DNA of 64,000 nucleotides from an uncultured Acidobacteriota bacterium (lineage in GTDB: Bacteria > Acidobacteriota > Blastocatellia > RBC074): the NCBI GenBank assembly GCA_963796275.1, contig CAWCKY010000002.1, forward strand, positions 160,001 through 224,000. Reading direction: 5' to 3'. The notes under the pieces were generated by a model. The model saw only the letters and a list, made by a program, of their open reading frames with translations. It was not told where the DNA came from and searched no databases. The position numbers were made by a program, and so were the translations under genes. Shown here piece by piece: positions 28,970-60,809 of the stretch (positions are counted from its first letter, which is position 1; each line of letters opens with the position of its first letter).

Positions 28970-30443
28970 ATGCCCCAGGTTATGCGCTCAATGCTGCTGC
29001 GCTACGGGACTTCAGTTTTGGCCGTAGTGCTTGCCTTGCTACTCACACTCCTGCTCAAGCCGCTGCTGGAACATGGTATCTTCGTGCTGTTTTTACCAGC
29101 CGTGATGGTGGGCGCCTGGTATGGAGGTCTGGGATCAGGTCTTCTCGCCACTCTCCTATCTGTCCTGTCCATCGACTACTTCTTGCTATCCCCACCCGGA
29201 AGGCTGACTCCAGGTTGGAGCGATATCCCGCAGCTGGCCATCTTTGTGTTGATCGCGGTCTTGATTAACTGGCTCGACGAAGCGCGTCATCGAGCCGAGG
29301 AAAGGTTGCGCGAAAGCGAGGCTCGCTACCGCGTCGTGGCCGAATCAGCAATTGATGCCGTCGTTTCCGCTGACAGCGCGGGCAGAATTATCTCCTGGAA
29401 TAGAGCGGCACAGCACATGTTTCTATTCACAGAAGATGAGGTGTTGGGCCGCCCGCTAACTATGATCATGCCCGGAACGCTATCGACAAGCTCATCAGCA
29501 AGGTTGGGAGCGATATCGGCGCACCGGCATTCAGCACATCATGGGGAGAGCGGTGGAACTGCATGGACTGAGAAAGGATGGCAGCGAATTCCCATTAGAG
29601 CTGTCCTTATCGTCTTGGGAAACAGAACGTGGCGTATTGTTCAGTGGGATCATCCGCGATATCACCGAGCGCAAGCGAAATGACCAAGCGCTGCGCGCGC
29701 TCTCTGACTCGCTCAAGAAGAGCGATGAGCTGAAGTCAGCCTTGCTCGCCTCGGTCTCCCACGACCTGCGATCCCCGCTCACTTCAATCCGCGCCGCGGC
29801 CGACAGCTTACTCAACCGGGATTTAACTTTGGATCCGGCCACACTTCACGAGCTTCACCTCATCGTCAGCGAGGGAGTCAGCCGCCTGACGCGATTGGTC
29901 GAGGACCTGCTGGCGATGGCTAGAGTTGAAGCGGGCGCTCTACACCTATCTATGCAGTGGGCATCACCCGAGGAGATATGCAGCGATGTGCTCGACCGCT
30001 GTGCCACCGAACTTCGCGACCACAGGGTGAGCGTCGAGTGTGCTGAAGACTTGCCTTCAGTCAAGGTCGATCCGCGGCTGGTGGCAGAGGCCCTGACTCA
30101 CCTGGTCGAGAACGCAGCCAAGTATTCGCCGAGAGGCAGTGAAATTACCGTGCGGGCGCAATTCCGGGGTGATGAACTCCTGATGAGCGCCACGGATCAG
30201 GGGCCGGGGATCGCTCCGGAGGAGAGGGAGCGCATCTTTGACAAGTTCTACCGCAGCACTCTTCGGTCTACGCAACAGAGCGATGGAACGGGGATGGGGC
30301 TGGCCATCGCCCGTGGGATTATCGAGGCGCACGGAGGAAGAATCTGGGTGGAGAGTACGCCGAACAGGGGAGCCACTTTCACCTTTGCGTTGCTGGCAGA
30401 GCATAAGACAGAACCCAGAGAGGCCGGTAACAAACCATGGTGA
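28970..30443 (+). CDS. KdpD-like sensor histidine kinase (DUF4118-PAS-HisKA-HATPase), +1 frameshift near 29474
   Basis: Removing one G in cccGGaa joins ORFs 28970 and 29541 into IMPERYRQAHQQGWERYRRTG. SVSHDLRSPL, NAAKYS, DQGPG and GTGMGLAI motifs follow. Confidence 0.85.
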
Positions 30444-30461
30444 GAAATTCGATCACTCCGC

Positions 30462-31901
30462 CTATTCGATGAGGGTCTCAATCATTGTTTGAATCATGCG
30501 GATGAGTGGCGCTGGATAGACTCCCAGCCACACCAGCAAAAAGGTCAGCCCGGCCAGCGCTATGCTCCCTGCAAGCGATAAAGATGGAACAGCAACTGAA
30601 ATCTCTCTGGTTGTATCTCTATACATAGCGACCACGATGCGCAGGTAATAGTAGAGCCCGATGGCGCTGTTCGATATCAAGATGATGACTAACAACCAGA
30701 GAGCCGACCCGGTGCCGGCGGCCAGGACGTAAAATTTCCCTACAAACCCGGCGGTCAGTGGGAGGCCCGCCAATGAGAGCAACGACGCAATGAAGATGCT
30801 GGCCAACCAGGGCCGGCGCCAGAGCAGCCCCCGGAAATCATCCATAGTATCTGCATCGCGTTCCGGCCCGGACAACACAGTGATGACGCCGAAGGCGCTC
30901 AAGGTCGTCACGAAATATGCTACGAGATAGAAGGTCACGGCCGTCGCCCCCCTCCTCTCTCCTGCCAGAAAAGCGACGAGTAAGTAACCGAGGTGCGCGA
31001 TAGATGAGTAGGCCAGAATCCGTTTGACATTATTTTGCATCAAGGCCAGCAGGTTGCCGACGAACATCGAGGCGATAGCAATGAGGGTGAAGGCCAGATA
31101 TAACGAACCAGAGGCCTGTATCCTAATTTCAGTGAAGTACCGCAACAAGATGGCAAATACCGCCCCCTTAGATACGGTCGCGACGAAAGCGGCCACCGGT
31201 GCAGGAGCGCCCTCGTACACATCCGGCGTCCACATATGAAATGGCACCACCGCCAACTTGAATCCAGCGCCGATGACAATCATTGCCAGACCTGCCAGGA
31301 ACATCTCCTGGTTAGTACTACTACTCAGGCTTTCCGACGGCATCCGAGCGAACTCCAGCGTCCCAAGATCGGCGTAGACCAGTGCCATGCCAAAGAGTAA
31401 AAATGCGGCCGAGACCGCCGCCAGGATCAGGTACTTGATCCCGGCTTCGATACTTCGCTCGCTGGTCCCCAAGTAGGCGATCAGGGCATAAAGAGCCACG
31501 CTGAGTGTCTCCAGACCGAGAAAGAAAGAGACGAAATGGCTGCTCGCAACCAACACTGCCGAGCCCAGGGTCACCAGGAGTAATAGAAGATAGAACTCCT
31601 CAGGATTATCTTGGCGCCTCGCGAGATAGCCATAAGACAGCAAAGCTACAAAAAAACTAGCTGCAAGGAGCAAGCCAATATAGAAGAGCGCATAACTGTC
31701 GAGAACCAGAAGCGGCGTTATTTGGCGTGGTACTTTAGCTGACACAAGTGGGAGCATAATGAATGCCAGGGCGAGTCCGATCAGCGTTATGACGGCTGTA
31801 ATTCTATGATTACGATAGAAAGCGATCACCAGCAGGAGCGCGACAGAGGCAACAGCTACCACAATCAGAGGTAACAGAGCGACTAAATCGCCGGAGGTCA
31901 T
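30462..31901 (-). CDS. nuoN: NADH-quinone oxidoreductase subunit N
   Basis: EAGIKY, FKL..VPFHMWTPDVYEGAP and KRILAYSSIAH motifs. Confidence 0.95.
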   Translation of the reverse strand: MTSGDLVALLPLIVVAVASVALLLVIAFYRNHRITAVITLIGLALAFIMLPLVSAKVPRQITPLLVLDSYALFYIGLLLAASFFVALLSYGYLARRQDNPEEFYLLLLLVTLGSAVLVASSHFVSFFLGLETLSVALYALIAYLGTSERSIEAGIKYLILAAVSAAFLLFGMALVYADLGTLEFARMPSESLSSSTNQEMFLAGLAMIVIGAGFKLAVVPFHMWTPDVYEGAPAPVAAFVATVSKGAVFAILLRYFTEIRIQASGSLYLAFTLIAIASMFVGNLLALMQNNVKRILAYSSIAHLGYLLVAFLAGERRGATAVTFYLVAYFVTTLSAFGVITVLSGPERDADTMDDFRGLLWRRPWLASIFIASLLSLAGLPLTAGFVGKFYVLAAGTGSALWLLVIILISNSAIGLYYYLRIVVAMYRDTTREISVAVPSLSLAGSIALAGLTFLLVWLGVYPAPLIRMIQTMIETLIE

Positions 31902-33496
31902 GGCTTACCTCCGTGATCCGATTTGCCGGATCGTGTTGCCATCATCAAGTCTCTTTGAGATAAACCGGAGCTACTCGCAGTTCCCTGCACCCTGACTGGA
32001 GCTGCGACTCGCATCATCGATGCGCCCAGCCTCAAGCTTTTTAGAAAAGGCCCGGCTGTGTTAAGGACAGGTTGCGGAAAGAGCCCTAACCAGACGATTG
32101 CGATAATCATCACACCCATGACGGCCATCTCACGGGCTGAGAGATCGGAGAAAGCCAGAGAATGCTCCCTCGGTCCGTGGAAAACCCGCTGGATGATCCA
32201 CAATGAATAGACGGTCGCGAAGACTAAACCTGTTGCCGCGAGCACGGTCAGAGATACACTCGACCGGTAAGAGCCGAATAACACCAGGAACTCGCCGAGG
32301 AAATTGCCCAACCCGGGCAGGCCGAGAGAGGCTAATGCAAAGAAGAGTGTGACCGCACCCATGCGCGGTGCGACAGACCAGAATCCGCCCATCCGATTCA
32401 GATCGCGTGTATGGATACGCTCCTGAAGCGCACCCGCCAGGATGAACAGCGCGCCCGTGCTGATCCCATGACAGAGGATTTGAATCACCGCGCCTTGCAG
32501 CGCCAGATCATTCGCGGCGAAGACTCCGAGAAGCACGAAGCCCATATGGCTGATGCTCGTGTATGCCACGAGCCGCTTGAGATCGGTTTGCGCGAAGGCC
32601 AGGATTGCGCCATACAGAATCCCAATCACGCCAAGCGCCATCGCGACTGGGGCGAAATCGAGAGCCGCTTGAGGAAACAAAGGCACGGCGAAGCGGATCA
32701 ATCCGTATGCCCCGGTTTTGAGCAAGAGGCCGGCCAGGATGACGCTGCCCGCCGTGGGAGCCTCGGTGTGGGCGTCAGGCAACCAGCTATGCACCGGTAC
32801 GACCGGAAGCTTGACGGCGAAAGCGATGAAGAAACCGAGCATCAGGAGCATCGCTGTTTGCGGATTCATCGCAGTGCCAAGCAGTTGCGAATAATCGAAC
32901 GTATAAGTGCCGGTATTCTGTCCATGGATAAAATAGAGCCCTAAAATCGCAGCGAGCATAAGCAAGCCGCCGGCCTGTGTGAAGATGAAGAACTTGATAG
33001 CAGCATAGATGCGATTTTCATGCCCCCAGATGCCGATGAGAAAGTACATCGGCACCAGCATCAACTCCCAGAAGAAGTAGAAAAGGAAGAGGTCTAAGGA
33101 GAGAAAGACGCCGACAATCCCGGCCAGAATCCACATGAGGTTGAAATGGAAGAAACCAACCCGCTCCCGAACCTCCGTCCACGATGCGACCACGGCCATG
33201 ATCCCAAGGAACAAAGTGAGCACGACCAATAGTAGACTCAGGCCATCTATGGCGAGGTGAAAGCTGATACCCAATTGCGGAATCCACTCTCGATTCAGCT
33301 CGGCCAGCAGCCATGAGCTTTCAGACGAGAACCGAGCCTGACCGAAATACCGTCCCCACAGAACCACCGCCAGGATAGAATCGACGCCCAGCGCGAGGAG
33401 CGAAATGTAGCGCGGCCACAAAGTATTCCAGCGACTGAGCAGCCACGCCAGAAGTCCGCCTGTCAGCAGAATGATGATAAGCCACGCCAGGATCAT
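31898..33496 (-). CDS. nuoM: NADH-quinone oxidoreductase subunit M
   Basis: FWELMLVPMY, PVHSWLPDAHTEAPTAGS and DLKRLVAYTS motifs. Confidence 0.95.
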   Translation of the reverse strand: MILAWLIIILLTGGLLAWLLSRWNTLWPRYISLLALGVDSILAVVLWGRYFGQARFSSESSWLLAELNREWIPQLGISFHLAIDGLSLLLVVLTLFLGIMAVVASWTEVRERVGFFHFNLMWILAGIVGVFLSLDLFLFYFFWELMLVPMYFLIGIWGHENRIYAAIKFFIFTQAGGLLMLAAILGLYFIHGQNTGTYTFDYSQLLGTAMNPQTAMLLMLGFFIAFAVKLPVVPVHSWLPDAHTEAPTAGSVILAGLLLKTGAYGLIRFAVPLFPQAALDFAPVAMALGVIGILYGAILAFAQTDLKRLVAYTSISHMGFVLLGVFAANDLALQGAVIQILCHGISTGALFILAGALQERIHTRDLNRMGGFWSVAPRMGAVTLFFALASLGLPGLGNFLGEFLVLFGSYRSSVSLTVLAATGLVFATVYSLWIIQRVFHGPREHSLAFSDLSAREMAVMGVMIIAIVWLGLFPQPVLNTAGPFLKSLRLGASMMRVAAPVRVQGTASSSGLSQRDLMMATRSGKSDHGGKP

Positions 33497-35385
33497 AGGA
33501 ACACCGCGATCGCTATTATCGCTGCCGCGCCGACAGCGATTCCCATTGCGTACCATCGCACTTGCCCTGTCACGGTACGGCTCAGCGCGCGATAGGTAGT
33601 TTGACTCAGCCAGGCTATCGCCTCATAGATGAGATCAATGAAATCGTTTTTGTAAGTCTGAGCCATCCAGATAAAAGGCCGGACAAATAACTTGTCGTAC
33701 AACCAATCGAAGCCCCATCCCGCATACCAAAACCTGTGCAACGCCGTGCCGAAATACGAGTGTGTCAAGCTTTCGGCCAGGCGAGGACGGCTTAGGTAGA
33801 AGAGATACGCGAGGTAAATTCCGATTAACGTAGTCATAGCGGCGATGACCTGAAATGCCAGTTCGATGCTCGTCTCAGCATGTCCAGAGCTCACTGCCGG
33901 TAAGGCGTTTTGCATTAACTCAGAGAAAAGTGGCCGGTTGCCCAGGGTGCGCGGCAATTCTACCAATCCGCCAGCTATCGACAGGAAGGCCAGAATGATC
34001 AATGGAATCTGCATCGGGATTCCGGGCGTTTGACCGACCTGACTCCTGGCCTCCCCGAAGAAAGTGATGAAGACCATGCGAAAGGTATAAATCGCAGTCA
34101 GCAAGGCGCCGATCAAACCTGCAGCCCAAAGCCACGGACTCCCTTTCGGCGAAGACCACGCTTCCCAGAGGATCATATCTTTGCTGTAGAAGCCGGCCGT
34201 CACCAGCGGCATTGCGGCCAGCGACGCGGCGCCGATGAGAAAAGTCACGAATGTAAGCGGAAGTTGCCTGCGCAAACCGCCCATCTCAAACATATCGTGC
34301 TCTTGCTGCAGACTCAGGATCACGACACCGGCGCCTAGGAAGAGAAGAGCTTTGAAGAAAGAATGGGTCATCAAGTGGAAGATGGCCGCTGACCACGCCC
34401 CAACTCCGAGAGCCAGAAACATATAACCGATCTGACTGATGGTGGAGTAAGCGAGGACGCGCTTGAGGTCCCGCTGCATGAGAGCGCTGAAGCCCGCCAT
34501 CAGCAGCGTTGCAGCCCCGATAATCGCCACAGCTGACTGCACGATCGGCGCGAGAGTGAAAAGCACGTTCATACGAGCGATCAAATAGACGCCAGCCGTC
34601 ACCATCGTAGCGGCATGGATGAGGGCGCTCACCGGTGTGGGACCAGCCATTGCATCCGGCAGCCACGTCTGTAAAGGGAGTTGTGCCGACTTACCCAAAG
34701 CGCCGCCCAGGAGCAGAGCTGCGGCGGCCACAGCGAGCGGCGAGCCAATCGGCCATTGCTGCGAGGCGCGTCCCATCAACTCCTGCATCTGCAAAGTACC
34801 CAAATGAGTGAAGAGCAGGAAGAGACCGACGGCCATCGCGGTATCGCCAACGCGGGTGACGATAAACGCTTTGCGAGCCGCGCTACCGTTGGCCGGCTCT
34901 TTGTACCAGAACCCAATGAGGAGATAACTACAAAGACCTACGCCCTCCCATCCCAGATAAAGCAGCAGCAAATTGTCGGCCAGCACCAGGGTCAGCATCG
35001 ATCCGACAAAGAGATTCATATATGCGAAGAAGCGGCTGTATCCTTCTTCAGCGATCATAAATTCCGCTGAATAGAGATGAATGAGAAACCCGACGAAAGT
35101 GATGACCAGCATCATCACTAACGATAACGCGTCGAGATAGAGAGTTATTGTGGGGGCGAAGCCTCCAATCGCGATCCATGTCCAGAGGGTTTGTGAGTAG
35201 GCATGACTTGCCGGCGGCGAACCGATGAAGCCGATGCTGAGGAGGATCGTCAGAATCGCTGAGGCACACACCGAACCGACACCGATGCCCGCCACGCCGG
35301 TGCGCGAGAGTCGAGAGCCTGCCAGCACCAGCACCAGGAACCCGGCGAAGGGCGAAACGGGTATTAACCACAATAACTCGAACAT
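33493..35385 (-). CDS. nuoL: NADH-quinone oxidoreductase subunit L
   Basis: GWEGVGLCSYLLIGFW and GKSAQLPLQTWLPDAMAGPTPVSALIHAATMV motifs. Confidence 0.95.
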   Translation of the reverse strand: MFELLWLIPVSPFAGFLVLVLAGSRLSRTGVAGIGVGSVCASAILTILLSIGFIGSPPASHAYSQTLWTWIAIGGFAPTITLYLDALSLVMMLVITFVGFLIHLYSAEFMIAEEGYSRFFAYMNLFVGSMLTLVLADNLLLLYLGWEGVGLCSYLLIGFWYKEPANGSAARKAFIVTRVGDTAMAVGLFLLFTHLGTLQMQELMGRASQQWPIGSPLAVAAAALLLGGALGKSAQLPLQTWLPDAMAGPTPVSALIHAATMVTAGVYLIARMNVLFTLAPIVQSAVAIIGAATLLMAGFSALMQRDLKRVLAYSTISQIGYMFLALGVGAWSAAIFHLMTHSFFKALLFLGAGVVILSLQQEHDMFEMGGLRRQLPLTFVTFLIGAASLAAMPLVTAGFYSKDMILWEAWSSPKGSPWLWAAGLIGALLTAIYTFRMVFITFFGEARSQVGQTPGIPMQIPLIILAFLSIAGGLVELPRTLGNRPLFSELMQNALPAVSSGHAETSIELAFQVIAAMTTLIGIYLAYLFYLSRPRLAESLTHSYFGTALHRFWYAGWGFDWLYDKLFVRPFIWMAQTYKNDFIDLIYEAIAWLSQTTYRALSRTVTGQVRWYAMGIAVGAAAIIAIAVFL

Positions 35386-35386
35386 C

Positions 35387-35701
35387 TCACCCCCGCATCT
35401 TACTGGCCGCATCCACATCCAGAGTCTTCAGCCTGTGATAGAGCTGGAGTACCAGGGCCAAACCGACCGACACTTCTGCCGCGGCCACTGCCAGAATAAA
35501 GATGAACATAACCTGGCCATCGACCTGTTCCCATCGAGATCCGGCGACAACAAAGGCCAGCCCTGCCGCATTCAACATGATCTCAATGGACATCAGAATG
35601 AAGATGATGTTGCGACGCACCAACACGCCGATCAGCCCCAGGACAAAGAGCAACCCGGAAAGGAGCAGCCCGTATTCGACAGTCAGCGACGGCATGATCA
35701 T
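35387..35701 (-). CDS. nuoK: NADH-quinone oxidoreductase subunit K
   Basis: RRN...[10 protein letters not shown] and [11 protein letters not shown] motifs. Confidence 0.95.
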
Positions 35702-36201
35702 TACCTCTCTCTATATATATTTCGGCCGAGATGATAAGCGCCCACCAGACCCGCCAGTAGCAGCATGGCAGCCAACTCCACACCCAACAGGTAAGGGCCA
35801 AAAAGCGCAACCCCCACCTGTCGCGGCTCTATACTGATGACTCCGGATTGTTGGCGACCTGCGCGAGTGATCATGTAGACCAGCTCCGCCATCAGAATGA
35901 TCGCCAGGATCGCCGGCCCAATCCACATTCGCGCTTTCAACCACTGACTTTCCCGCATGACGGCCTCATGACCCAGGTTGAGCAGCATGATCACGAATAC
36001 GAAGAGCACCATGATCGCTCCTGCATAGATGATCACCTCCAGGGCAGCGATGAATGGGGCGCCCAGGCGGAAGAAGATCAATGCCACCGAGAGTAACGAC
36101 ACGATCAAGTAAAGCAAGGCATGCACGGCATTCAGCCGGGTGATCACCATCACCGTCGAAACAATCGCCACTGCTGCTGCGATGAAAAATACTGCGTCCA
36201 T
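35701..36201 (-). CDS. nuoJ: NADH-quinone oxidoreductase subunit J
   Basis: [17 protein letters not shown] motif. Confidence 0.95.
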
Positions 36202-36231
36202 AGACTACAACTCTGTCTCGCCACTACTTGA

Positions 36232-36747
36232 TCACGGCATCAGACTGTGCACGTCTATAGGCGGCTCCTCATTCTTGGCCTCGCCTTTATCCTTCCCCCC
36301 AATTGCCAATCCGGCCACCCGGTAAAAGTTATAACCCGGATACTTGCCGGGGCCGTCGATCAGCAGATCCTCCTTCTCATAGACCAGGTTTTGCCGTTTG
36401 TATTCAGACATCTCGAAATCGGGAGTGAGCTGGATCGCATATGTGGGACACGCCTCCTCGCAAAAGCCGCAAAAGATGCAGCGCGAGAAGTTGATGCGAA
36501 AGAACTCCGGGTAACGCCGGCCATGCTCGTCCTCCGTCGCTTGCAAGGCGATGCAATCGACCGGACAGGCGACCGCGCACAAGTAGCAAGCAACACATCG
36601 CTCGCCTCCGTCAGGATCGCGCGAGAGGATGATACGCCCTCGCCACCTGGGCGGCAGATAAGGCTTCTCATCGGGATACTGAATTGTCTCCCGCCGTCGA
36701 AACATATGCAGAAATACCAACCACATGCTCTTCAGAATACTGATCAT
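36232..36747 (-). CDS. nuoI: NADH-quinone oxidoreductase subunit I
   Basis: Two CxxCxxCxxxCP ferredoxin motifs. Confidence 0.95.
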
Positions 36748-36762
36748 CGTTTTCTCCTTCTA

Positions 36763-37722
36763 TCAGGCCGCGAGCACAATCGCTCCGGTGACGACAATGT
36801 TGAGCAATGTCAGCGGAAGCATAACCTTCCAGCCGTAAGCCATCAGTTGATCATAACGCGGCCTGGGAAGCGCGGCCCGCAGCAAGATGAACCCGCAAAT
36901 AAAGACGAAGGTCTTGAGAAGAAACAAGACCACCGGCGGCAGCACCGGCCCCAGCCATCCGCCGAAGAACAGCGACACGATCATGGCAGAGATCAGCGTG
37001 ATGCCGAGATATTCCCCGACGAAGAACATGCCGAATTTCATGCCGGAATATTCGGAATGATAACCGGCCACCAGCTCGCTTTCGGCTTCCGGCAGATCGA
37101 AAGGCAGCCGATGCGTCTCTGCGATACCGGCAATGAGGAAAGTTACCAGACCGAGAAACTGGGGGATGCAGAACCACAGGCCCCGCTGCGCTTCCACGAT
37201 CTCGCGCAAGTTAAATGACCCGGCAAGCATGACCACCCCCATGAGCGACAGCCCCATGAACACTTCATAGCTCAACATTTGAGCTGAGGCTCGCAAGCCG
37301 CCCAGCAACGAGTATTTGTTCCCCGACGCCCATCCAGCCAGCACCACGCTATAGACACCCAACGACGACATCCCCAGGAAGAAGAGCAGGCCTATGTTCA
37401 GGTCCACCACCTGAATACCTGGGGCAAACGGGATGATGGAGAAGGACATCAACATCGTCACTACGATTACAGCCGGGGCGATAATGAACACCGGCTTGTC
37501 GGCGAAGGGCGGATTCCAATCCTCTTTGGCAAATATCTTGATCATATCGGCCAGCACCTGCAGCAAACCGAAAGGGCCGACGCGATTAGGGCCATAACGG
37601 TCTTGCCAGAGCGCCAGCAGCCGGCGCTCCAGCCAGATCAGCCCTGCGGCGATGGTGAGTATGGCGATCAGCACGCCGGCGATAGTCATGAGTGATCGGA
37701 TGATTTCATTCATCTCCCTCAT
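36763..37722 (-). CDS. nuoH: NADH-quinone oxidoreductase subunit H
   Basis: [11 protein letters not shown] and [24 protein letters not shown] motifs. Confidence 0.95.
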
Positions 37723-40430
37723 CCTCTCGATAGACTGCCCCAGGCAGGCAAAGCAATCTCCGTTAGCTCCCGCAAGTCGGCGGGCAACCCGGCGACCCCT
37801 CTCGGTAATGCCGGTTGGAGCTTTACGGGAAGGCGATGTACAGAGCCATCCAGCGCCAGCTCTATCTCTTCCCCATCATTTACCCGAAGACCGGACGCAT
37901 CATCGGGATTTAGCGCCAGGTAAGGCTGTGGAGATCGTTCAGCAATGCCAGGTGACAAGATGCTTAACTCCTCCGAACCGAAGATATGGTAGAGAGGCAC
38001 AATCAACCACTCGCTTTCGCGAGACTTAAAGGCTGCCGGTACATCGCGGAAGTAATATACTTCCGCACCCGACGCAGGCTCGATCATGCGCTGACCAGGA
38101 TCCCCGCCTAGCAGCGGGCCGCCCACTTCATCCTGGAACTTATTTAATGCCTGCACTGAGTTCCACCCCGGCGCCCAGTAATGCGTGATGAACGGCGGCG
38201 GCGGCTCGCCTTCATAACCTTCCATTGAGAAAGCGAGCGGAGAGTCGGGGTCATTTGGCGGTCGAGGCTCGTTAACATCGATCTGAACCAGCATAGCTGT
38301 GCGCCCGCTGTACCGGTGTGGTTGGCGGGGTATCTTTTGTCCCGCGATGCGAAATCCTGCGGGCGGTGCGACCTTCAAAATCGGCGAACAGATAGGAATC
38401 GCCGCGGCCAGGGCGGAAGCGACGTCATCGAGGTTATACCAGGCCGCACCCTCAGAGTGGTTAGTGGCGATCATCACATCGCGCAGCCAGCGCCAGCTCT
38501 CCTGGATCTCCCCATTCGGCACAAATACCTGATAGAAGCGCTGCGCGCGCCCTTCGCTGTTCACCAGCGTGCCATCGCCCTCGGCAAAGGTAGCCGCCGG
38601 GAGAATCACATCAGCTTTAGACGTGGTGGGATTGGATAAGTGATCGATCGCAATAATATGCCTGGCAGCATTCAGCATCGTATCCACTGACTTCGCATCC
38701 GCCCGCCGATAGAGATCATTCTCCAGAATAATCACGGTCTCTGCAGCCTTCTGCTCCATAATTTTGAAAGTATCGTTGAGGCTATTTCCGCCGATGAGAG
38801 CTACGCCCAGGCTATTGCATTCAGGCACAGTGAAACATAGTTCGGCAGTTCGGCCGTTTTCGCACAAAGCCCGCGCCACGTTAGCGGCCGCCAGCATCAC
38901 TTCTTCGGAGCCGCAACTTGTTCCGGAGATGATCAAAGGCCGCTTGGCCCCTTTGAGCGCCTGAGCGATCCTGCCGGCCAATGAATGCAACTCCTCCGGC
39001 AGGTCTCTGACCGGCGGAGCGCCACCATTCAGCGCATGAGCCACCGCAAAACCCAGACGGGCCAGATCATCGGGCGCTGCGCGGTACTTCTCAGCAGCGA
39101 TATCGTCAAGTCTTGTGCTGCAGGTCGTCGCGATGAAAAGCGGCCCCTTCTCACCCTGAATTGCCTCGCGTACAGCGGCATCGTCCCACTCGGGGATTTT
39201 CAGCCTCGCAGCAATCTCCAGAGGCTTGCGCAGCACCGATCGGCGCAGGGCGAGCGCCAACCTCGGCGCTACATTTGTGAGATCCTCTCCCAGCAGCAGA
39301 ACCGCGTCAGCGAGCTCCGCGTCGTGCAGCGACGGCGAGCGCGCGGGACCTATCCTTAAAATGTTCCGCGCTGTAGCAATCAGGCGAGAATCGCGCTCGG
39401 ACATTCCAAGACAGAAGTGCTCCGGCCCGACCAGAGTACGCAGCGCAAAATTGGCCTCCAGCGACGCGCGCGGAGATCCGATCCCGATCACTCTGGAACT
39501 CTCGGAAAGGAGCGGCTTCAAGTATTGAATGATGAAATCTTTTGCAGCCGGCTCTAACAAGCCGCTTCCCTGCTTCCGAAGCAATGGCTGGCGAATTCTC
39601 CGATCTCTGTTCACAAACTCATAGCCGTAACGCCCGCGATCGCACAGGAAGTACCCATTGACTTCACCGTTATACCGGTTGTAGACCCGCCGCAGCTCAC
39701 CGTAACGCTCGCCGGGAATTGTGTTGCAGCCCAGACCGCAGTGCACGCAGATGGACGGCGCAGTCTGCAAATCCCACTTGCGCGTGTAGTGTTGCTTCAA
39801 TGTTTTATCGGTGAAGACTCCCGTAGGACACACCTCAACCAGGTTGCCGCTGAACTCATTCTCCAGAATGCCATCCTCAAAGCGGCCGAAGTAGACGTGA
39901 TCGTGCGCAGCAAAGACGTCCAGATCGCGCCCCCCGGCGTAGTCGCGATAGAATCGAATACAACGATAGCATTCGATACAACGGTTCATCTCGTGGTTGA
40001 CGAACGGGCCGAGATACTGATTGCGAAATGTCCGCTTCCGGAAACGGAAGCGCCGGTAAGTATGTCCGGTCATTACCGTCATATCCTGAAGGTGGCACTC
40101 GCCACCCTCATCACAGACCGGGCAATCGTGCGGATGGTTGACCATGAGCCATTCGATCACGCTCGCACGAAATGATCTCGCTTCCGAATCGTCGATTGAG
40201 ATGCGCGTGTTGCTGGCGGCCGGGGTCATGCAAGCCATCATCAGCCTGCCATGCGTATCCTTCTCGTCCCTGAACTGTTTCACCGCGCACTGGCGGCAGG
40301 CGCCGACCGAACCCAAAGCCGGATGCCAACAGAAGTAGGGTAGATCGAAGCCTAACGAAAGGCAGCTGTGAAGCAGGTTCTGACCATCTTCGACGGTGTA
40401 AGGTTGGTTATCGATATAGATAATCGCCAT
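37719..40430 (-). CDS. nuoG: NADH-quinone oxidoreductase subunit G (long, E. coli type)
   Basis: FCWH...[20 protein letters not shown], and an extra CxxCxxxC (N7-type) cluster motif; 903 aa. Confidence 0.95.
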
Positions 40431-40433
40431 TCG

Positions 40434-42187: not shown

Positions 42188-42215
42188 ATTTCTACCTATT
42201 TCTCTCCCTTACGCT

Positions 42216-45259: not shown

Positions 45260-45312
45260 GGAGCTGGAAAAGACTGTTAGCACGGAAGTTGAATGAAGAA
45301 ACTAATAGACTT

Positions 45313-47292: not shown

Positions 47293-47302
47293 AGATATGT
47301 AG

Positions 47303-47340
47303 TAAAGAAGTCATAAACAAACCATGAAAAACCTATTAAG
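47303..47340 (-). promoter_or_regulatory. Orphan copy of the 11-bp boxes facing the 3' end of the regulator
   Basis: Minus strand reads ttaataggttt-ttcatggtttg-tttatgacttc-ttta, with no good -10 at the 16-nt distance. Confidence 0.55.
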
Positions 47341-47934: not shown

Positions 47935-48000
47935 TTTACGGTTTCCTGATGATCTCTTAACGGCTTGTTTATGACTTCTTTATCTCTTTCCTGCTAGATT
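47935..48000 (+). promoter_or_regulatory. act-cox promoter with the same boxes
   Basis: tttacggtttc-ctgatgatctc-ttaacggcttg-tttatgacttc, then 16 nt ending TGc, then TAGATT. Confidence 0.72.
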
Positions 48001-48087
48001 CGAATTTCCAATGAACATCACCAGCTCCTTCGAGATATTAAAGAAGCTCGAACGCCGTGGACAGACAGAAGTGAAAGAGGCGGTGAT

Positions 48088-48747: not shown

Positions 48748-48763
48748 CAGTGAGGGCAAGCCG

Positions 48764-51700: not shown

Positions 51701-51790
51701 TACGAGCTGCTCGCCGAACTCAATACGAGGCCGCGCACGACTTATCTCGCTTCGGTGCGCAATCCGAACCCTGAGCTCGAGGAGATTTGA
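48764..51790 (+). CDS. actB: Alternative complex III ActB (molybdopterin-oxidoreductase-like plus Fe-S domain, Tat-variant signal)
   Basis: [14 protein letters not shown]...[17 protein letters not shown] and a C-terminal DmsB-like Cys cluster domain. Confidence 0.92.
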
Positions 51791-51795
51791 ACTGG

Positions 51796-53227
<1,432 letters not shown>

Positions 53228-53722
53228 TGGCCGAGTTCGACAATCCGACCTCTCTGGTAGCCGCGACCAGCCGCGCATACAGCGAAGGCTATCGGCAGAT
53301 GGACGCCTACAGTCCGTTTCCGATTGAAGAGCTTTCTGAAGCGCTGGGATTTCGTTGGTCAGGCGTCCCGCTGATCGTGCTCATTGGCGGTCTGGTCGGA
53401 TGCCTGGGTGGATATTTACTGCAGTATTACATCGCGGCGATCTACTGGCCGGTCAATGTCGGTGGGCGCCCGTTCAATAGCTGGCCTATGTTCATCCCGG
53501 TGACATTCGAGCTGACGGTATTGTGCGCGGCGCTCTTCGGATTCTTCGGGATGCTGGCGCTCAACGGTCTGCCGAAGCCGCACCATCCGGTCTTCAACGC
53601 GCCGCGCTTCGAGTTCGCGTCGCGCGACCGATTCTTTCTTTGCATTGAAGCCACCGATCCGAAGTTTGATCAGGCGGCGACACGAGGCTTTCTGGAGAGC
53701 CTGGGTGCGCGTGAGGTGAGTG

Positions 53723-54499
53723 ATGTCGCGAGCTGAAAAATCAAATATCGAAAACCGAAAGTCGAGGGTCAAAAGTGCAGGATTCTATTGCGAGCATTTT
53801 ATTTCACCCCGAACCGGCGTCATCGAAGCGACAAAAAATATCGGAAGCAGCAGGCGATCATTTTTGCTATTCGCCTTTTGCCTTTTGCCTTTCGCCTTTC
53901 TACTCGCTGGCTGCCGTCAGGATATGCACGATCAGCCAAAGTATACGCCGCTCAGACCCAGCACGTTTTTTGAGGATGGCAAGTCAGCACGTCCCCTAGT
54001 CGATGGTACAGTGCCGCGCCGCAACTTGAGAGAAGACCCATCCCAATCCGACGGCGATTCGAATGGAGGACGGTCACTTCGGATCGATTTAGCTTCTGGG
54101 CCTCAACAAACACAGCAACCGGATATTTCAAAAGCTATTACTCCCCCGATTCAGGTCACGCAGGATGTGCTGGATCGCGGGGAGGAACGATTCAACATTT
54201 CTTGCACCCCGTGTCACGGGCGAGTGGGCGACGGCAACGGGATGATTACGCAGCGCGGTTTCCGCCGCCCGCCGTCGTATCACATTGACCGATTGCGTGG
54301 CGCTCCCATTGGTCATTTCTTCGACGTGATGACGAACGGCTTCGGCGCAATGCCGAGCTACGCCGATCAGGTTGCACCGCAAGACCGCTGGGCCATCGCG
54401 GCTTACATTCGCGTCCTGCAACTGAGCCGCAATGCAACGCTCGCCGACGTGCCCCCTGGAGAGCGCAGCCGATTGAATGCAAGAGGGCAGGCGCGATGA
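53723..54499 (+). CDS. actE: Alternative complex III monoheme cytochrome c lipoprotein
   Basis: Lipobox LLAGC, RQDMHDQPK, CTPCH, MPSYA.Q and DRWAI..YIR.LQ motifs. Confidence 0.9.
   Translation: MSRAEKSNIENRKSRVKSAGFYCEHFISPRTGVIEATKNIGSSRRSFLLFAFCLLPFAFLLAGCRQDMHDQPKYTPLRPSTFFEDGKSARPLVDGTVPRRNLREDPSQSDGDSNGGRSLRIDLASGPQQTQQPDISKAITPPIQVTQDVLDRGEERFNISCTPCHGRVGDGNGMITQRGFRRPPSYHIDRLRGAPIGHFFDVMTNGFGAMPSYADQVAPQDRWAIAAYIRVLQLSRNATLADVPPGERSRLNARGQAR
53737..53903. repeat. Heptamer tandem repeats inside the actE N-terminus
   Basis: aaaatca-aatatcg-aaaaccg-aaagtcg (53737-64) and ttttgct-attcgcc-ttttgcc-ttttgcc-tttcgcc (53862-96). Confidence 0.7.
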
Positions 54500-55677
54500 C
54501 CGAGATTACCACTTACGCGGCGCCGGCGGAGCTTGGCCGTTTTCAACGAAACGCGCTGATCGTCGGCATCATCGGCATCATGCTGTGCGTAGCTGGATGG
54601 CTCATAAACCCGGAACAGTTCTTTCAGTCTTACCTGATCGGCTATCTGTTCTGGATGGGCATTGCGCTTGGCTGTCTGGCCATCATGATGCTGCAGCACC
54701 TGACTGGCGGCGAGTGGGGGTTGGTGATTCAACGCCTGCTTGAATCGGCGACGCGCACACTGCCACTGATGGCAGTGTTGTTCGTGCCGCTTGCGCTCGG
54801 CATGAGCTATCTCTATGCGTGGTCGCGTTCGACCTCCGCTGAAGAGGCCGGAAATCATCAGGATACCTGGCTCAGCGTTCCGTTCTTTCTGATGCGTGCA
54901 GGCTTGTACTTTGCGATCTGGCTTGTCATGGCCTACTTCCTCAATCGCTGGTCGCACGAGCAGGATCGCGATGGGGACCCGCAATTGAAACGGCGCTTGC
55001 AGGTGTTGAGTGGTCCTGGGCTTGTGATTTATGGATTGACGGCGACGTTTGCCGCGACCGACTGGCTGATGTCGCTCGTGCCCGAATGGTATTCAACGAT
55101 CTTTGGGCTGCTCGTCATCGGCGGCCAAGTGCTTTCGGCGATGGCGTTCGCGGTGGCCGTTGCTGTTGTATTGGCTGAGCGCGAGCCGATGAATCATGTT
55201 TTTGCGACGAAGCATTTTCACGACCTCGGCAAGCTGCTGCTGGCTTTTGTCATGATCTGGGCATATCTCGCCTTTTCGCAACTATTGATCATCTGGGCGG
55301 GCAACCTCCCGGAAGAGATTCCGTTTTATCTGCCGCGCATGCAGACGAGCTGGCGCTGGATCGGAGCGCTGCTGGTCGTTTTTCAGTTTGCGCTGCCGTT
55401 TCTACTGTTGCTTTCGCGCGAACTGAAACGTCACGCGCGGCGATTGATCGCAGTCGCGGCACTCGTCATCGTGATGCGTTTCATTGATCTCCTCTGGCTC
55501 GTGGCACCGGAGTTTCGTCGTCAGGGATTCAAGTTTCACTGGCTCGACATTGTCGCGGTGATCGCGCTCGGAGGGGTATGGCTGGCGTTTTATTTGTGGC
55601 AACTGCGGAGATGGCCGCTCATGCCCCTGCACGATCCGCGATTGGAGGCAGCTTTGGCGCATGATGCGCGGCATTAA
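54496..55677 (+). CDS. actF: Alternative complex III ActF membrane subunit
   Basis: DWLMSL.PEWYSTIFG, HDLGKLL.AF and FSQLLIIWAGNLPEE motifs; about 10 TM helices. Confidence 0.88.
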   Translation: MTEITTYAAPAELGRFQRNALIVGIIGIMLCVAGWLINPEQFFQSYLIGYLFWMGIALGCLAIMMLQHLTGGEWGLVIQRLLESATRTLPLMAVLFVPLALGMSYLYAWSRSTSAEEAGNHQDTWLSVPFFLMRAGLYFAIWLVMAYFLNRWSHEQDRDGDPQLKRRLQVLSGPGLVIYGLTATFAATDWLMSLVPEWYSTIFGLLVIGGQVLSAMAFAVAVAVVLAEREPMNHVFATKHFHDLGKLLLAFVMIWAYLAFSQLLIIWAGNLPEEIPFYLPRMQTSWRWIGALLVVFQFALPFLLLLSRELKRHARRLIAVAALVIVMRFIDLLWLVAPEFRRQGFKFHWLDIVAVIALGGVWLAFYLWQLRRWPLMPLHDPRLEAALAHDARH

Positions 55678-55696
55678 GATTTCAGGGGAGGTTGCA

Positions 55697-56143
55697 ATGA
55701 CGGATCAAGTCGAACAATCGGATGTCGCGCACGAAGCGAGTGATGTGAGCGTTCCGACCATCGTCAAATTCGGCCTTGCGCTGATCGTCGCAATTGGATT
55801 GGTGTGTCTACTGGTCTGGGGATTGTTCGCAGTCTTCTATGCGCGCGCCGTGAAGACCGAACCGACGCCGCCACCGCTCTATCGTGGTGAGCGGCTGCCG
55901 CCTGAGCCGCGACTGCAGGGCATGCCGGGACATCAGAGCATTCCGTCAGAAGACATCAAAGAGTTTCGCAAGAGAGAAAACATCGAACTCAATTCATATG
56001 GCTGGGTCATCAAGCCGTCCGGGCAACAAGCTGGGATTATTCACATCCCGATCGAGCGGGCAAAGAAGTTGATCCTCGAGAGAGGGCTGCCTGCCCCAAC
56101 CGCTAGCTCTGGGCAAAACAGGCCGCCGGAGAAGAAGCAATAA
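55697..56143 (+). CDS. Single-TM ACIII-associated protein (ActG-like)
   Basis: HE.SD, PPEPRLQ, LNSYGW and HIPIERA motifs; located after actF. Confidence 0.7.
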   Translation: MTDQVEQSDVAHEASDVSVPTIVKFGLALIVAIGLVCLLVWGLFAVFYARAVKTEPTPPPLYRGERLPPEPRLQGMPGHQSIPSEDIKEFRKRENIELNSYGWVIKPSGQQAGIIHIPIERAKKLILERGLPAPTASSGQNRPPEKKQ

Positions 56144-56235
56144 CGAGGTGGATCGTGAAGATAGAAAACAGAGCGGAAGGCTATCAACAATATGCGTCAT
56201 GCAGAAAGCGAATTGTCATAAAGGAGGAGCGTAAG

Positions 56236-58143
56236 ATGCGTCGACTCGCTTTCCGCCTAATGCCTGGTGCTCGATGGACGCTGTTCTCCGCCTTCTGCCT
56301 CCTGCTTTTCGCCGCGCCGGCCTTCGCCCAGGCGGGCAAGCCTTTGCGGCCTTCGGATATTCGCTTCGAGCAGCGGCTAGATGAACGGGTTTCGCTCGAT
56401 CTCAACTTTCGTGATGATGAGGGGCAGACGGTCAGATTAGGCGATTACTTCAGGAGCAAGCCGGTCATCCTCGCGCTCGTCTATTACGAATGCCCGATGC
56501 TCTGCAGTCAAGTGCTGACCGGGCTGACCCACAGCCTCAAGACCATCTCATTCGACGCCGGCAAAGAGTTCGAGGTAGTCATCGTCAGCTTCAACCCCCG
56601 CGAGACACCTGAGCTGGCGAGCGCAAAGAAAGAAACGTACCTGCGGGATTACTCGCGTCCCGGAACGGCTGCGGGCTGGCACTTCCTGACCGGCGATCCG
56701 AAAGCGATTGAGGAGATCACTCAGGCTGTGGGCTTTAGTTATGTCTACGACTCGGCGCTCAACCAGTATGCTCACGCTTCTGGCATCATGGTTTTGACGC
56801 CGGAGGGGAGACTCTCGCGCTATTTCTACGGCATCGAGTATGCGCCGCGCGATCTGCGGTTGGGTCTGGTCGAAGCCTCGGCAAACAGGATCGGCACATC
56901 GGTAGATCAGATTTTACTGCTCTGCTACCAATACGATCCGACGACAGGAAAATATGGTGCGGCGGTAATAAATGCACTGCGGTTCGGTGGAATCATAACA
57001 TTGTTGTTTGTGGTGATACTTCTTTTTGTACTGGAGCGAAAGTCAAAAGGGCAAAATCGATCTGACACAACAGTCAAGCCGATCAACCTTTGCCTTTTGC
57101 CGTTTTATTTCTTCCTCCTGCCGTTTGCTCCTGAAGAAGCCTCCACTGTCGCCGGCAAAGTGGATGAGCTATACATTTTTCTGGTGGTGATCGCGATCTT
57201 CTTCAGCGTGCTGATCGCCGGGCTGGAGATTTTCTTTGCCATCAAATATCGCCGCCGCTCGCCGGATGAATTCCCACCCGCCTCGGTCCCTTCGCTCAAG
57301 CTCGAAATAACCTGGACCGTTATTCCGTTCATAATCGCCATGGTCATATACGTGTGGGGCGCCAAGCTCTACTTTGACATCTATCGTAATCCGAGCGACG
57401 CGATCGATGTTTACGTCATGGCTAAACAATGGATGTGGCGGTTCCAGCACCCTGACGGGAAGCGCGAAATCAATGAGCTGCACGTGCCACTGGGCCGGCG
57501 GGTCAAGCTAACTATGTCGAGCGAAGATGTGATCCACAGCTTCTACGTGCCCGCTTTTCGTGTCAAGGCAGATGTCGTCCCGGGCAAGAACCGCTATACA
57601 ACGGCATGGTTCGAGGCGACCAAGCCCGGCAGGTACCACCTTTTCTGCGCTGAATACTGCGGCACTAGCCATTCTGGGATGATCGGCTGGGTTGATGTGA
57701 TGGAACCCGCCGAGTATCAGGCCTGGCTTGGCGGCGGCACGGAGACAGGCTCATTAGCCGCGAATGGAGAACGGTTGTTTCAGCAAATGGCCTGTGTGAC
57801 CTGCCATCGGAGCGACGGAACGGGGCGCGGGCCGAAGCTTGAAGGGTTGTTCGGCGGCAAGGTAATGCTCGACAACGATCAGACGGTCGCATTCGATGAA
57901 AGCTATCTGCGCGAATCAATCCTCAACCCGCAGGCGAAGATCGCCGCCGGATACAAACGTCCCTCGGAGATGCCGACGTTTGACACGCTGGTGAGCGAAG
58001 AACAGTTGTTGCAACTCATCGCATACATCAAATCCATCGGCCCGCAAAGTAAGACAGCCGAAGACGCAAAACCGACGCCGGTTCATAATAAAGCGGCCGC
58101 CCAGACTCCTGCGCAGCCAAAGCAGGAAGGTCTCAAGCAATAG
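56236..58143 (+). CDS. coxB: Fusion of SCO1/SenC copper chaperone, cytochrome c oxidase subunit II and cytochrome c (caa3-type)
   Basis: AAGGAGG RBS. One frame carries SCO CPMLC plus YAH, CuA ligands DVIHS and CAEYCGTSHSGM, and heme c CVTCH. Confidence 0.88.
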   Translation: MRRLAFRLMPGARWTLFSAFCLLLFAAPAFAQAGKPLRPSDIRFEQRLDERVSLDLNFRDDEGQTVRLGDYFRSKPVILALVYYECPMLCSQVLTGLTHSLKTISFDAGKEFEVVIVSFNPRETPELASAKKETYLRDYSRPGTAAGWHFLTGDPKAIEEITQAVGFSYVYDSALNQYAHASGIMVLTPEGRLSRYFYGIEYAPRDLRLGLVEASANRIGTSVDQILLLCYQYDPTTGKYGAAVINALRFGGIITLLFVVILLFVLERKSKGQNRSDTTVKPINLCLLPFYFFLLPFAPEEASTVAGKVDELYIFLVVIAIFFSVLIAGLEIFFAIKYRRRSPDEFPPASVPSLKLEITWTVIPFIIAMVIYVWGAKLYFDIYRNPSDAIDVYVMAKQWMWRFQHPDGKREINELHVPLGRRVKLTMSSEDVIHSFYVPAFRVKADVVPGKNRYTTAWFEATKPGRYHLFCAEYCGTSHSGMIGWVDVMEPAEYQAWLGGGTETGSLAANGERLFQQMACVTCHRSDGTGRGPKLEGLFGGKVMLDNDQTVAFDESYLRESILNPQAKIAAGYKRPSEMPTFDTLVSEEQLLQLIAYIKSIGPQSKTAEDAKPTPVHNKAAAQTPAQPKQEGLKQ

Positions 58144-59817: not shown

Positions 59818-59828
59818 GGAGAGCAATA

Positions 59829-60491
59829 TTGTCTGTGGATCATGCGACAAGCTCTTCGGCGCTCGCGCATCAGTTCGATAACCTCGAACAACAACGCGAG
59901 GCGTCCACGCTGGGAATGTGGGTCTTCCTGGTAACCGAGGTGTTGTTCTTCGGGGGGCTCTTCACATCCTATATCGTCTACCGCTCCTTGAACCCTTTTG
60001 CCTTCGCCGAGGTCAGCCGGCATCTGGACATAGCGCTCGGCACGATCAATACGGCGGTACTGATCTGCAGCAGCCTCACTATGGCGCTGGCTGTTTACGG
60101 CGCGCAGAAGGGAAAGCAGCTGATGATCGTCGGATACCTGATACTGACCATTCTGCTTGGTCTGGTTTTCATCGGTATTAAGTTCTATGAGTATTACCAG
60201 AAGTTCGTCGAGCATTTCGTGCCAGGCAGTTCATTCAGCTTCCCTCCCCCTTACATGCAGGAAGCGGAGATGTTCTTTTCGCTCTACTTCGCGATGACCG
60301 GATTGCACGCTTTACACATGATCATCGGAGTCGGACTGCTGACGTGGCTCATTCTGCTCGCGCGTCACGGACGATTCACACCAGAATATCACTCACCCGT
60401 TGAGTTGACTGGACTCTACTGGCACTTCGTAGACATCATCTGGATATTTCTTTATCCGCTGCTCTACCTGATCGGCCGCCATCTGGAATGA
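59829..60491 (+). CDS. ctaE: Cytochrome c oxidase subunit III
   Basis: GMWVFLVTE, MTGLHALH and GLYWHFVDIIW motifs. Confidence 0.92.
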   Translation: MSVDHATSSSALAHQFDNLEQQREASTLGMWVFLVTEVLFFGGLFTSYIVYRSLNPFAFAEVSRHLDIALGTINTAVLICSSLTMALAVYGAQKGKQLMIVGYLILTILLGLVFIGIKFYEYYQKFVEHFVPGSSFSFPPPYMQEAEMFFSLYFAMTGLHALHMIIGVGLLTWLILLARHGRFTPEYHSPVELTGLYWHFVDIIWIFLYPLLYLIGRHLE

Positions 60492-60515
60492 TCTACGAAA
60501 CGAAAGGATTGAGTT

Positions 60516-60809
60516 ATGCCTGAACACATCGTCCATATCAAAGTCTACGTTATCATCTTTATTGCACTGCTGATATTGACTGCTACGACCTGCGCGATTT
60601 CGTTCATCAATCTGGGACGATTGAATGCAATCGTGGCGTTGGTGATCGCGTTCGGTAAAGCCTTGCTGGTGGCGCTTTTTTTCATGCATCTGCGTTACAG
60701 TCGCCGCCTCATGCAAGTCGTTGTCGCTGGCGGGCTGTTCTGGCTGGGTATTATGATCGCACTGACGATGAGCGATTTTCTGACCAGAGGCTGGCTGACG
60801 TATAGATGA
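60516..60809 (+). CDS. ctaF: Cytochrome c oxidase subunit IV (caa3-type)
   Basis: IA..KA.LV.LFFMHL motif; 3 TM helices. Confidence 0.88.

Follow-up and report, generated by a model that had tools for sequence, protein, structure and literature searches.

Gene content of the window

The window analysed here is the whole 64,000-nt stretch G000:C2:160001-224000 from the genome of a soil bacterium of the Acidobacteriota (G000; 9.46 Mb in 7 contigs). It carries one operon for respiratory complex I (nuo) and one for alternative complex III (ACIII, act) with a caa3 oxidase (cta), and between them lie the genes of a histidine kinase (HK1) and a response regulator (RR1), which together with a second kinase (HK2) and a repeated promoter element are the subject of this work. 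Genes were called from a listing of open reading frames (ORFs) and from Pfam and NCBIfam scans of the window (Table 1). An earlier note on this DNA had described the nuo and act/sco-coxB/ctaDEF operons as diverging around a short DUF4118 kinase and a KdpE-like regulator, a layout that the gene calls confirm, and had stated that neither kdpFABC nor the heme O/A synthases are in the window; indeed, KdpA matches are found in the genome only on contig C6, and ctaB and ctaA are located elsewhere in the genome. What the note overlooked is that the region it described starts (28970) with HK2, a kinase paralogous to HK1.

Table 1 Genes and promoter elements of the respiratory gene region in the window.
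Feature	Position	Strand	Description
HK2	28970-30443	+	DUF4118, PAS, HisKA, HATPase (Pfam); convergent with nuoN; split into two ORFs
HK2 ORFs	28970-29683 and 29541-30443	+	frame broken by an additional C in the CCC run at about 29474-29476, placed against the G286 orthologue
nuoN-M-L-K-J-I-H-G-F-E-CD-B-A	30462-45066	-	13 genes, all intact; NuoCD fused (Pfam, NCBIfam)
Box A and -10, toward nuoA	45205-45259	-	CTTATGGAATC / TTGATGGCTCA / TTTATGACTTC (45227-45259), 16 nt, TAGAGT (45205-45210)
Box B and -10, toward HK1-RR1	45324-45378	+	TTTATGGAATC / TTGATGGTTTA / TTTATGACTTC (45324-45356), 16 nt, TAAAGT (45373-45378)
HK1	45527-46603	+	DUF4118, HisKA, HATPase; 358 aa
RR1	46603-47292	+	OmpR/PhoB-type regulator: REC and Trans_reg_C; top NCBIfam model KdpE
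Strain-variable stretch including box C	47294-47910		~617 nt; no convincing ORF
Box C	47307-47339	-	at the RR1 stop codon, directed into RR1; without convincing -10
Box D and -10, toward actA	47924-48000	+	CTAACAACCTC / TTTACGGTTTC / CTGATGATCTC / TTAACGGCTTG / TTTATGACTTC (core 47946-47978), 16 nt, TAGATT (47995-48000)
actA-actG, alternative complex III	48088-56143	+	actC split at about 52427-52430
SCO1/SenC-CoxB-cytochrome c fusion	56155-58143	+	662 aa; CuA site, one CxxCH
ctaD, ctaE, ctaF, caa3 oxidase	to 60809	+	CtaD with YSHP motif
DUF488 gene	60806-61291	+	overlaps the ctaF stop codon

The YSHP motif in CtaD is the mark of an A2-type oxidase. CxxCH motifs number five in ActA, one in ActE and one in the CoxB fusion; actB encodes an Fe-S protein with a TAT signal and actC an NrfD-like protein. 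The act-cox operon probably runs on into the DUF488 gene as its last gene, and the DUF488 orthologue of the relative G020 (81%) lies within a box-driven operon, while the homologue in a further relative, G286, adjoins the regulator. The same SCO-CoxB-cytochrome c fusion is encoded in a paralogous act-cox cluster of the genome (52% identity over residues 2-631), and just downstream of the oxidase operon (61560-62429, minus strand) there is a gene for a protein with a cytochrome P460 and a YHS domain. The nuo operon has the two features, a fused NuoC-NuoD and 13 genes nuoA-N, by which the E. coli-type complex I class NUO13 is defined in PMC4758237; its NuoCD scores 1044.9 bits on NCBIfam NF008728 (cut-off 840) and its NuoG matches TIGR01973.

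A phased repeat element precedes the three transcription units

The nuo, HK1-RR1 and act-cox units had been noted before to have a common promoter signature, and both the repeat statistics and four exact cores show that this signature is real. The core TTTATGACTTC occurs exactly at 45227(-), 45346(+), 47307(-) and 47968(+), that is four times within 2.8 kb, and the 9.46 Mb of the genome hold 8 exact copies. With at most one mismatch it is found 5 times in the window, where 0.67 copies are expected, and none of 100 shuffles gave 5. Each of the window cores sits in a repeat of 41-64 nt (boxes A to D in Table 1), in which TTTATGACTTC is the end of at least three phased 11-bp TTnAYG repeats. At boxes A, B and D it is followed, after exactly 16 nt, by a -10 box. 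Box A with its -10 lies ~140 nt upstream of nuoA; it forms with box B a divergent inverted pair (arms 81% complementary, 60 nt apart), and the -10 box that belongs to box D lies ~90 nt upstream of actA. The 800-nt gap between RR1 and actA was scanned for ORFs with nothing convincing found, and the ~617 nt around box C vary between strains, since a soil-metagenome contig of a relative replaces them by 117 other letters that join 47293 to 47911, keeping the HK1-RR1-actA adjacency.

Other interpretations of the intergenic DNA gave little. An Rfam scan of 44900-48200 returned no family above its gathering score, and a MIR172 match on the inverted repeat of boxes A and B (28.6 bits, threshold 70) was taken as chance. 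Consensus scans for sigma-70 promoters and terminators gave counts not above those of shuffles. Of the sequencing runs listed for the window none is an RNA run, and only three soil DNA runs have shares of it, all small (0.07-0.18). An apparent joint of opposite strands at 45223/45390 in one of these (X2) falls on the inverted repeat of boxes A and B and probably arose in assembly.

When the genome was scanned with a weight matrix derived only from the four window boxes, the window sites scored 40-46 bits, and the next genomic site (28.5 bits, C6:284881) lies upstream of a gene for a CBS-pair protein, whose best matches in G020 and G286 (47-51% identical) are likewise preceded by the element. 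In the reverse comparison, this gene is the closest one in G000 (49-51% identical) to the box-driven CBS genes of those two genomes. Further nuo and act copies and kdpFABC, which the earlier note had proposed to look for elsewhere in this genome, are all present outside the window. By tblastn of the window proteins, a second nuo cluster (nuo14) lies on C6 (~34-51% identity) and a second act/sco-coxB/cta cluster at C2:655-669 kb (38-66%), and the element was found at neither of these two clusters. Several ActA copies are the usual state in this group, with two to four each in the Blastocatellia genomes G006, G020, G001, G025 and G000.

The canonical kdp locus (C6:2.705-2.723 Mb) encodes KdpA, KdpB, KdpC, a separate KdpD-N/Usp protein, a 428-aa DUF4118 kinase and a KdpE that is 57% identical to RR1; the only match of the genome to the KdpD N-terminal domain (PF02702) is on C6, and a third KdpDE-like pair is on C1. 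The canonical kdp promoters have 3-4 phased TTTATG/TTTACG repeats, which score 20-22 bits with the matrix from the window boxes. In addition to the split KdpD, the stretch C6:2705000-2722500 contains an extra 4HB-HAMP-PAS kinase, two genes for BBP2 (OmpL-like) porins and a VWA gene among the kdp genes. A near copy of the canonical kdp promoter array (compare C6:2715983) is found at C2:724540-724583, far from any kdp gene and upstream of a 105-aa REC fragment.

RR1 descends from a kdp-linked KdpE

The best NCBIfam model for RR1 is KdpE, with 221.5 bits, under the equivalog cut-off of 325, and among solved structures it is closest to E. coli KdpE (4KNY, E 8.4e-57), with which it is collinear over residues 6-225; KdpE-DNA structures are the entries 4KNY and 4KFC. 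R193 and R200 in helix alpha-8 and T215 in the wing, which PMC3264566 gives as DNA-binding residues of E. coli KdpE, are conserved in RR1 in the alignment to 4KNY. The same paper gives the E. coli KdpE half-sites as TTTATA and TTTACA with 5 bp between them, and the TTnAYG repeats of the window, with their 11-bp period at all four copies, are direct T-rich 6-bp half-sites as at KdpE sites.

Forty relatives were compared for identity to RR1 (the tallies include an unpublished genome, G004, on which no claim rests). Homologues of at least 70% identity are present in G020 (84%), G006 (82%), G029 (77%), G025 (73%), G031 (71%) and G001 (70%), and the remaining matches are at most 62% identical. Directly upstream of the RR1 homologues in G029, G031 and two named loci from metagenome-assembled genomes, L099 (74%) and L101 (70%), lies kdpABC, and a KdpD N-terminal domain is also found at the regulator loci of G029, G031 and L099. 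Out of 21 regulator loci, 11 have kdpA, kdpB or kdpC, one has a KdpD-N domain alone and nine, among them those of G006, G020 and G025, have neither. In a maximum-likelihood tree of 24 regulators, RR1 and the regulators of G006, G020, G025 and G001 (support 92/95) fall inside a clade of kdp-linked KdpE (97/98), here called clade I, and the kdp-linked KdpE of the same genome falls in another acidobacterial clade (97/99). RR1 thus descends from a kdpFABC-linked KdpE. The promoters of kdp operons in RR1's clade agree with this: upstream of kdpA in L101 we find TTTATAAAATC TTTATGCTGTC TTTAAGACTTC, 16 nt and AAAGTT, and upstream of kdpF in G031 a repeat series that ends with CCTATGACTTC, followed by 16 nt and TAAGGT. 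In their grammar these two promoters agree with the window boxes, down to the 16 nt that separate the last repeat from the -10 box.

The two kinases and the likely signal

In HK1 a four-helix DUF4118 membrane module is joined directly to the DHp domain (H-box SHDLRTPL), and the domain scan gave no KdpD N-terminal, Usp or linker domain. HK2, which is 54-61% identical to HK1, likewise lacks the KdpD N-terminal (PF02702) and Usp domains in the scan and consists of DUF4118, PAS, HisKA and HATPase alone. The DHp helix SVSHDLR(T/S)PLTSIRAA is common to HK1, HK2 and the clade-I kdp kinases, whereas the canonical kdp kinases of the genome have AVTHDLRTPLTSIKAS in its place, a difference that fits two pathways which may be insulated from each other.

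Read against the orthologue in G286, the PAS domain of HK2 continues after LTMIMP in the other frame as PERYRQAHQQGWERYRRTGIQHIMG. The top seven matches of its C-terminal half in the PDB are all FixL haem domains (E 1.2e-10 to 5.5e-8), and the intact second PAS domain (PAS2) of the G286 kinase gives E 3.6e-23 and 2.3e-22 with FixL in the same kind of search, with DosP next. The proximal His and the two propionate-binding residues of FixL align in the PAS domain of HK2, a candidate for haem binding. Since HK2 has this FixL-like putative haem-PAS, O2 or redox is favoured over K+ and is the leading candidate for the signal. FixL-like kinases are found in exactly the two lineages with a box-driven NUO13 (G000 and G286), which makes two cases only. 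It has been suggested that NUO13 may serve mainly under anaerobic conditions (PMC4758237, citing Spero et al. 2015).

Wiring of the element in relatives

G006 and G020 belong to genus g5, in the same family as the source genome, and G286 belongs to another family. In G006 the orthologues of actA-F (72-89% identical) are preceded by a near-identical box array and TAGATT, and when the regions upstream of actA in G000 and G006 are aligned they are near-identical across the boxes and the -10 and diverge after it. Likewise, the regions upstream of nuoA in G000 and G286 are conserved across the repeats and the -10, then decay, and the 5' untranslated region is not conserved.

The regulatory genes themselves are box-driven in these relatives. 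A contig of G006 that starts from the end of ctaF (90%) carries a box, an ORF and genes for an MFP, an RND pump, GH15, MgtC, a 508-aa DUF4118 kinase, an HK1 orthologue (65%) and a response regulator (82%). In G020 a first box precedes an ORF and genes for DUF2231, MgtC, a kinase, HK1 and a response regulator, a second box precedes the CBS-pair gene, and a third precedes genes for an FNR-like reductase and DUF488. On one strand of G286 we find a box followed by genes for DUF4142, a cupredoxin, a 618-aa kinase (DUF4118-PAS-PAS) and then a response regulator (79%). A NUO13 operon has a second box, at a distance of ~2.7 kb from there and 210 nt upstream of its nuoA. A second G286 contig has a box in front of genes for a soluble kinase and the CBS-pair protein and for a 529-aa DUF4118 kinase convergent with nuoN, and behind nuoN a further box leads to a hemerythrin gene and a single REC domain. 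G286 thereby repeats the layout of the window, with a kinase gene convergent with nuoN and, at the other end of the operon, nuoA, box, box and a kinase-regulator pair. The other box-driven genes of these relatives (hemerythrin, cupredoxin, FNR-like reductase, MgtC) fit a theme of O2, redox and energy. The MgtC-family genes lie directly upstream of kinase genes in the box-driven operons (L037:7363-8034 in G006 and L039:17336-18013 in G020); elsewhere MgtC is a modulator of ATP synthase.

In a sample of 401 genomes of the class, NUO13 (E <= 1e-200) is present in 10, namely G000, seven of the eight genus-g5 genomes, G187 and G286, and full-length HK1 in three only (G000, G006 and G020). A box-driven NUO13 is found in G000 and G286 and a box-driven act-cox operon in G000 and G006, and since these are differing genomes the regulon is plastic. 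No further nuo- or act-linked copy of RR1 was seen among the matches listed, which are mostly canonical KdpE and unrelated OmpR-family regulators. For G187, 417 nt upstream of nuoA are available and are mostly coding. In the NUO13 operon of G020 (G020:C26; L080:19138-20000 and L081:1-978) the nuoN orthologue follows ~108 nt after nuoK, and the DNA between the two gives no match to nuoL or nuoM at 45% identity or more.

Two kinds of matches to the element in relatives were put aside. Matches to the box core that lack upstream TTnAYG repeats, in G006, G020, G025, G029 and G031, were taken as chance. An element of GTTAC repeats that ends in the same 11-mer was set aside as belonging to another regulon: at the loci L069, L199 and L200 (G029:C9, G187:C89 and G286:C93) it reads GTTACnnnnnn two to three times, TTTACnnnnnn and then TTTATGACTTC/A, and it adjoins a gene for a different winged-helix protein, of which only the C-terminus is Trans_reg_C-like. 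It is probably the site of a separate regulon with a common last repeat.

Proposed mechanism and alternative explanations

On these grounds we favour, at slightly better than even chances, the reading that HK1, HK2 and RR1 form a KdpDE-derived two-component system which has been uncoupled from the K+ pump and is predicted to activate a spare respiratory chain. Phosphorylated RR1 would bind as tandem dimers to the phased 11-bp TTnAYG repeats, and the promoter-proximal repeat (TTTATGACTTC) would overlap the -35 position, with a TAnAnT -10 box following after 16 nt. Bound in this way, RR1 is predicted to activate the operon for nuo13 complex I, that of HK1 and RR1 itself and that of ACIII, the A2-type caa3 oxidase and DUF488, and also the distant gene for the CBS-pair protein; the presence of box B at HK1-RR1 indicates autoregulation. 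The outcome would be a second NADH-to-menaquinone-to-O2 chain, turned on beside the box-less nuo14 and act-cox copies. As the main input we propose HK2, in which a FixL-like putative haem-PAS follows the KdpD-type membrane module and precedes the kinase core; it would respond to O2 or redox. HK1, without a sensor domain beyond its membrane helices, may contribute a membrane or ion input or act as a phosphatase.

The description of the locus as a Kdp-type system that has been repurposed to control a spare respiratory chain is, as a prediction from sequence, well supported. It was put forward in the earlier note for nuo, the regulatory genes themselves and act-cox, and that part is upheld by the ancestry of RR1, its conserved residues, the kdp-like promoters, the separate kdpFABC-KdpDE of the genome, the conservation of the element and the box-less paralogues. 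Its other parts need qualification: binding, inducibility and the direction of control are predictions, the island is not conserved, and the signal would be O2 or redox rather than K+.

Several observations weigh against the reading that we prefer. Box C serves no obvious gene. The 'island' is not a conserved unit, and its parts are dispersed in genus g5: five further NUO13-bearing g5 genomes, 80-96% complete, have no HK1-like match (E <= 1e-60), six g5 genomes have a different conserved promoter upstream of nuoA, with no boxes or paired half-sites, and none of the three actA copies of G020 has a box. With regard to the signal, HK2 has Val and the G286 kinase has Ile at the place of the distal Arg of FixL (R220 in B. 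japonicum; the R220A entry 1Y28 confirms the position), and because of this replacement it is uncertain whether O2 would be sensed as in FixL. In G006 the neighbour of HK1, the 508-aa kinase, lacks a FixL-like PAS; its middle domain was considered as one and rejected as only weakly PAS-like (E 0.7). Because RR1 and the canonical KdpE closely resemble each other in the recognition helix, and because the canonical kdp promoters also bear TTTAYG repeats, cross-binding by the K+-responsive KdpE is possible.

Finally, actC and HK2 are both frameshifted in this assembly. The actC gene has one extra base (+1) at about 52427-52430, outside any homopolymer, and is intact in G006 and in the paralogue in G000. 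In each of two soil runs one contig, ~93-95% alike, lacks the extra base (52430); the depth without it is 9.21 of 12.1 in the first run and 5.39 of 11.9 in the second. The soil run that is near-identical to the window (X1) has no coverage of the site. Since kdpA, kdpB, one ctaB copy and the paralogous ctaD are also fragmented, the assembly looks prone to indel errors, and the frameshifts in actC and HK2 are likely assembly errors.

A first alternative we regard as unlikely: the boxes could be read mainly by a canonical K+-responsive KdpDE (the one on C6, or the third pair on C1), with HK1 and RR1 only modulating, so that K+ limitation would induce the extra chain to power the ATP-driven Kdp pump. 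The phased repeats and matrix scores of the C6 kdp promoters speak for such an arrangement, as do the recognition helices, which differ at few positions and keep the Arg contacts. However, the grammar of a proximal TTTATGACTTC, 16 nt and a -10 box matches the promoters of clade-I KdpE and not the C6 kdp promoter, which lacks a -10 at the 16-nt spacing; moreover RR1 lies between the two operons with a box of its own, and HK1 and HK2 have a DHp helix unlike that of the canonical kinase.

A second alternative accepts RR1 as the protein that binds the boxes and reverses its action, phospho-RR1 being a repressor that shuts a spare chain expressed by default. The proximal repeat covers ~-39 to -29 and contains ATGACT, which has 4 of the 6 letters of the -35 hexamer, with an 18-nt spacer, and a site at that position could occlude RNA polymerase. 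Phased upstream repeats that overlap the -35 are, however, typical of class II activation by PhoB/OmpR-type regulators, and the -10 boxes are weak (TAGAGT, TAGATT), as for activator-dependent promoters. The same architecture is also found at the kdpFABC promoters of relatives, and at kdpFABC KdpE is an activator (PMC3264566); we consider repression distinctly improbable.

It is very unlikely, lastly, that the repeats are mere duplicated promoter DNA without a dedicated regulator, boxes A and B having been inverted and duplicated into C and D and HK1-RR1 controlling unrelated genes: box C does resemble box B in reverse complement, as box D resembles box A (77-80% complementary), and the stretch with box C varies between strains, yet orthologous promoters in G006, G020 and G286 have kept the element while their flanks diverge, it stands upstream of the unlinked CBS gene in three genomes, and its half-sites are phased at 11 bp like those of a response-regulator site.

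If HK1, HK2 and RR1 do activate the spare chain, a further step can tentatively be imagined, about which we are rather doubtful. The chimeric set of HK1 as a KdpD membrane stub, HK2 as a KdpD-membrane/FixL-haem kinase and one KdpE-derived regulator might switch the cell between its two complete, paralogous NADH-to-O2 chains, integrating O2 or redox with a membrane or ion signal. A K+-homeostasis circuit, cis-elements included, would then have been rebuilt to act, in abundant soil Acidobacteria, as the master switch by which one whole chain of isozymes replaces another. The Acidobacteria, which rank with the most abundant bacteria of soil, have several copies each of ACIII-caa3 and complex I, and for one copy of the respiratory chain the locus offers a candidate regulator, a predicted binding motif and a candidate haem sensor. 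It is also an example of how a two-component system may be rewired, with KdpDE duplicated, sensor domains lost or swapped, the element spread to new operons and targets differing between genera.

Comparison with known systems

With E. coli KdpDE the window system has in common the collinear sequence and contact residues of RR1, the DUF4118 module and KdpD-like DHp/CA core of the kinases and the direct T-rich 6-bp half-sites at 11-bp spacing, and RR1 nests among kdp-linked KdpE. It differs in that the window kinases lack the KdpD N-terminal and Usp domains, no kdpFABC is nearby, RR1 scores under the KdpE cut-off and the predicted targets are respiratory. Furthermore, there are 3-5 phased repeats instead of two, the last of them overlapping the -35, and one kinase, HK2, has gained a putative haem-PAS.

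In the FixL/FixJ system of rhizobia a haem-PAS kinase senses O2 and controls fixK and the genes of the cbb3 oxidase. Among solved structures the PAS domain of HK2 is closest to the FixL haem domains, with the proximal His and the two propionate-binding residues aligned, and the predicted output is again respiratory gene expression. On the other hand, the regulator is of the OmpR/KdpE type and not a NarL-type FixJ, HK2 has no distal Arg and has a KdpD-type membrane anchor, and the predicted targets in the window, in place of cbb3, are complex I and ACIII together with an A2 caa3 oxidase of low affinity. ResDE of Bacillus subtilis and SrrAB of Staphylococcus aureus, in which a membrane PAS kinase and an OmpR-type regulator adjust the expression of oxidases and cytochromes to oxygen or redox state, follow the same logic of a PAS kinase with an OmpR-family regulator of respiratory genes. 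The window system is, however, derived from KdpDE, with another sensor architecture and binding motif, and has two kinases for one regulator and whole complex I and ACIII operons as predicted targets.

The act-cox operon corresponds to the 'superoperon' of cultured Acidobacteria, in which ACIII genes are followed by those of an A2-type caa3 oxidase and for which O2-dependent transcript levels were reported in cultured strains (Trojan et al. 2021, main text of PMC8407424). The order actABCDEF(G), coxB, ctaDEF and the YSHP CtaD are the same, and several copies per genome are usual; in contrast, the window copy bears a response-regulator element and adjoins a predicted regulator and a NUO13 operon. 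The words 'regulator' and 'two-component' have no occurrence in that main text. Our literature search found no paper that pairs KdpE with alternative complex III or FixL with DUF4118, and a search on KdpDE and respiratory terms gave unrelated papers only, as judged from its listing. Both the rewiring of two-component systems and haem-PAS control of respiration are known kinds of regulation, and the system of the window is a variant of these.

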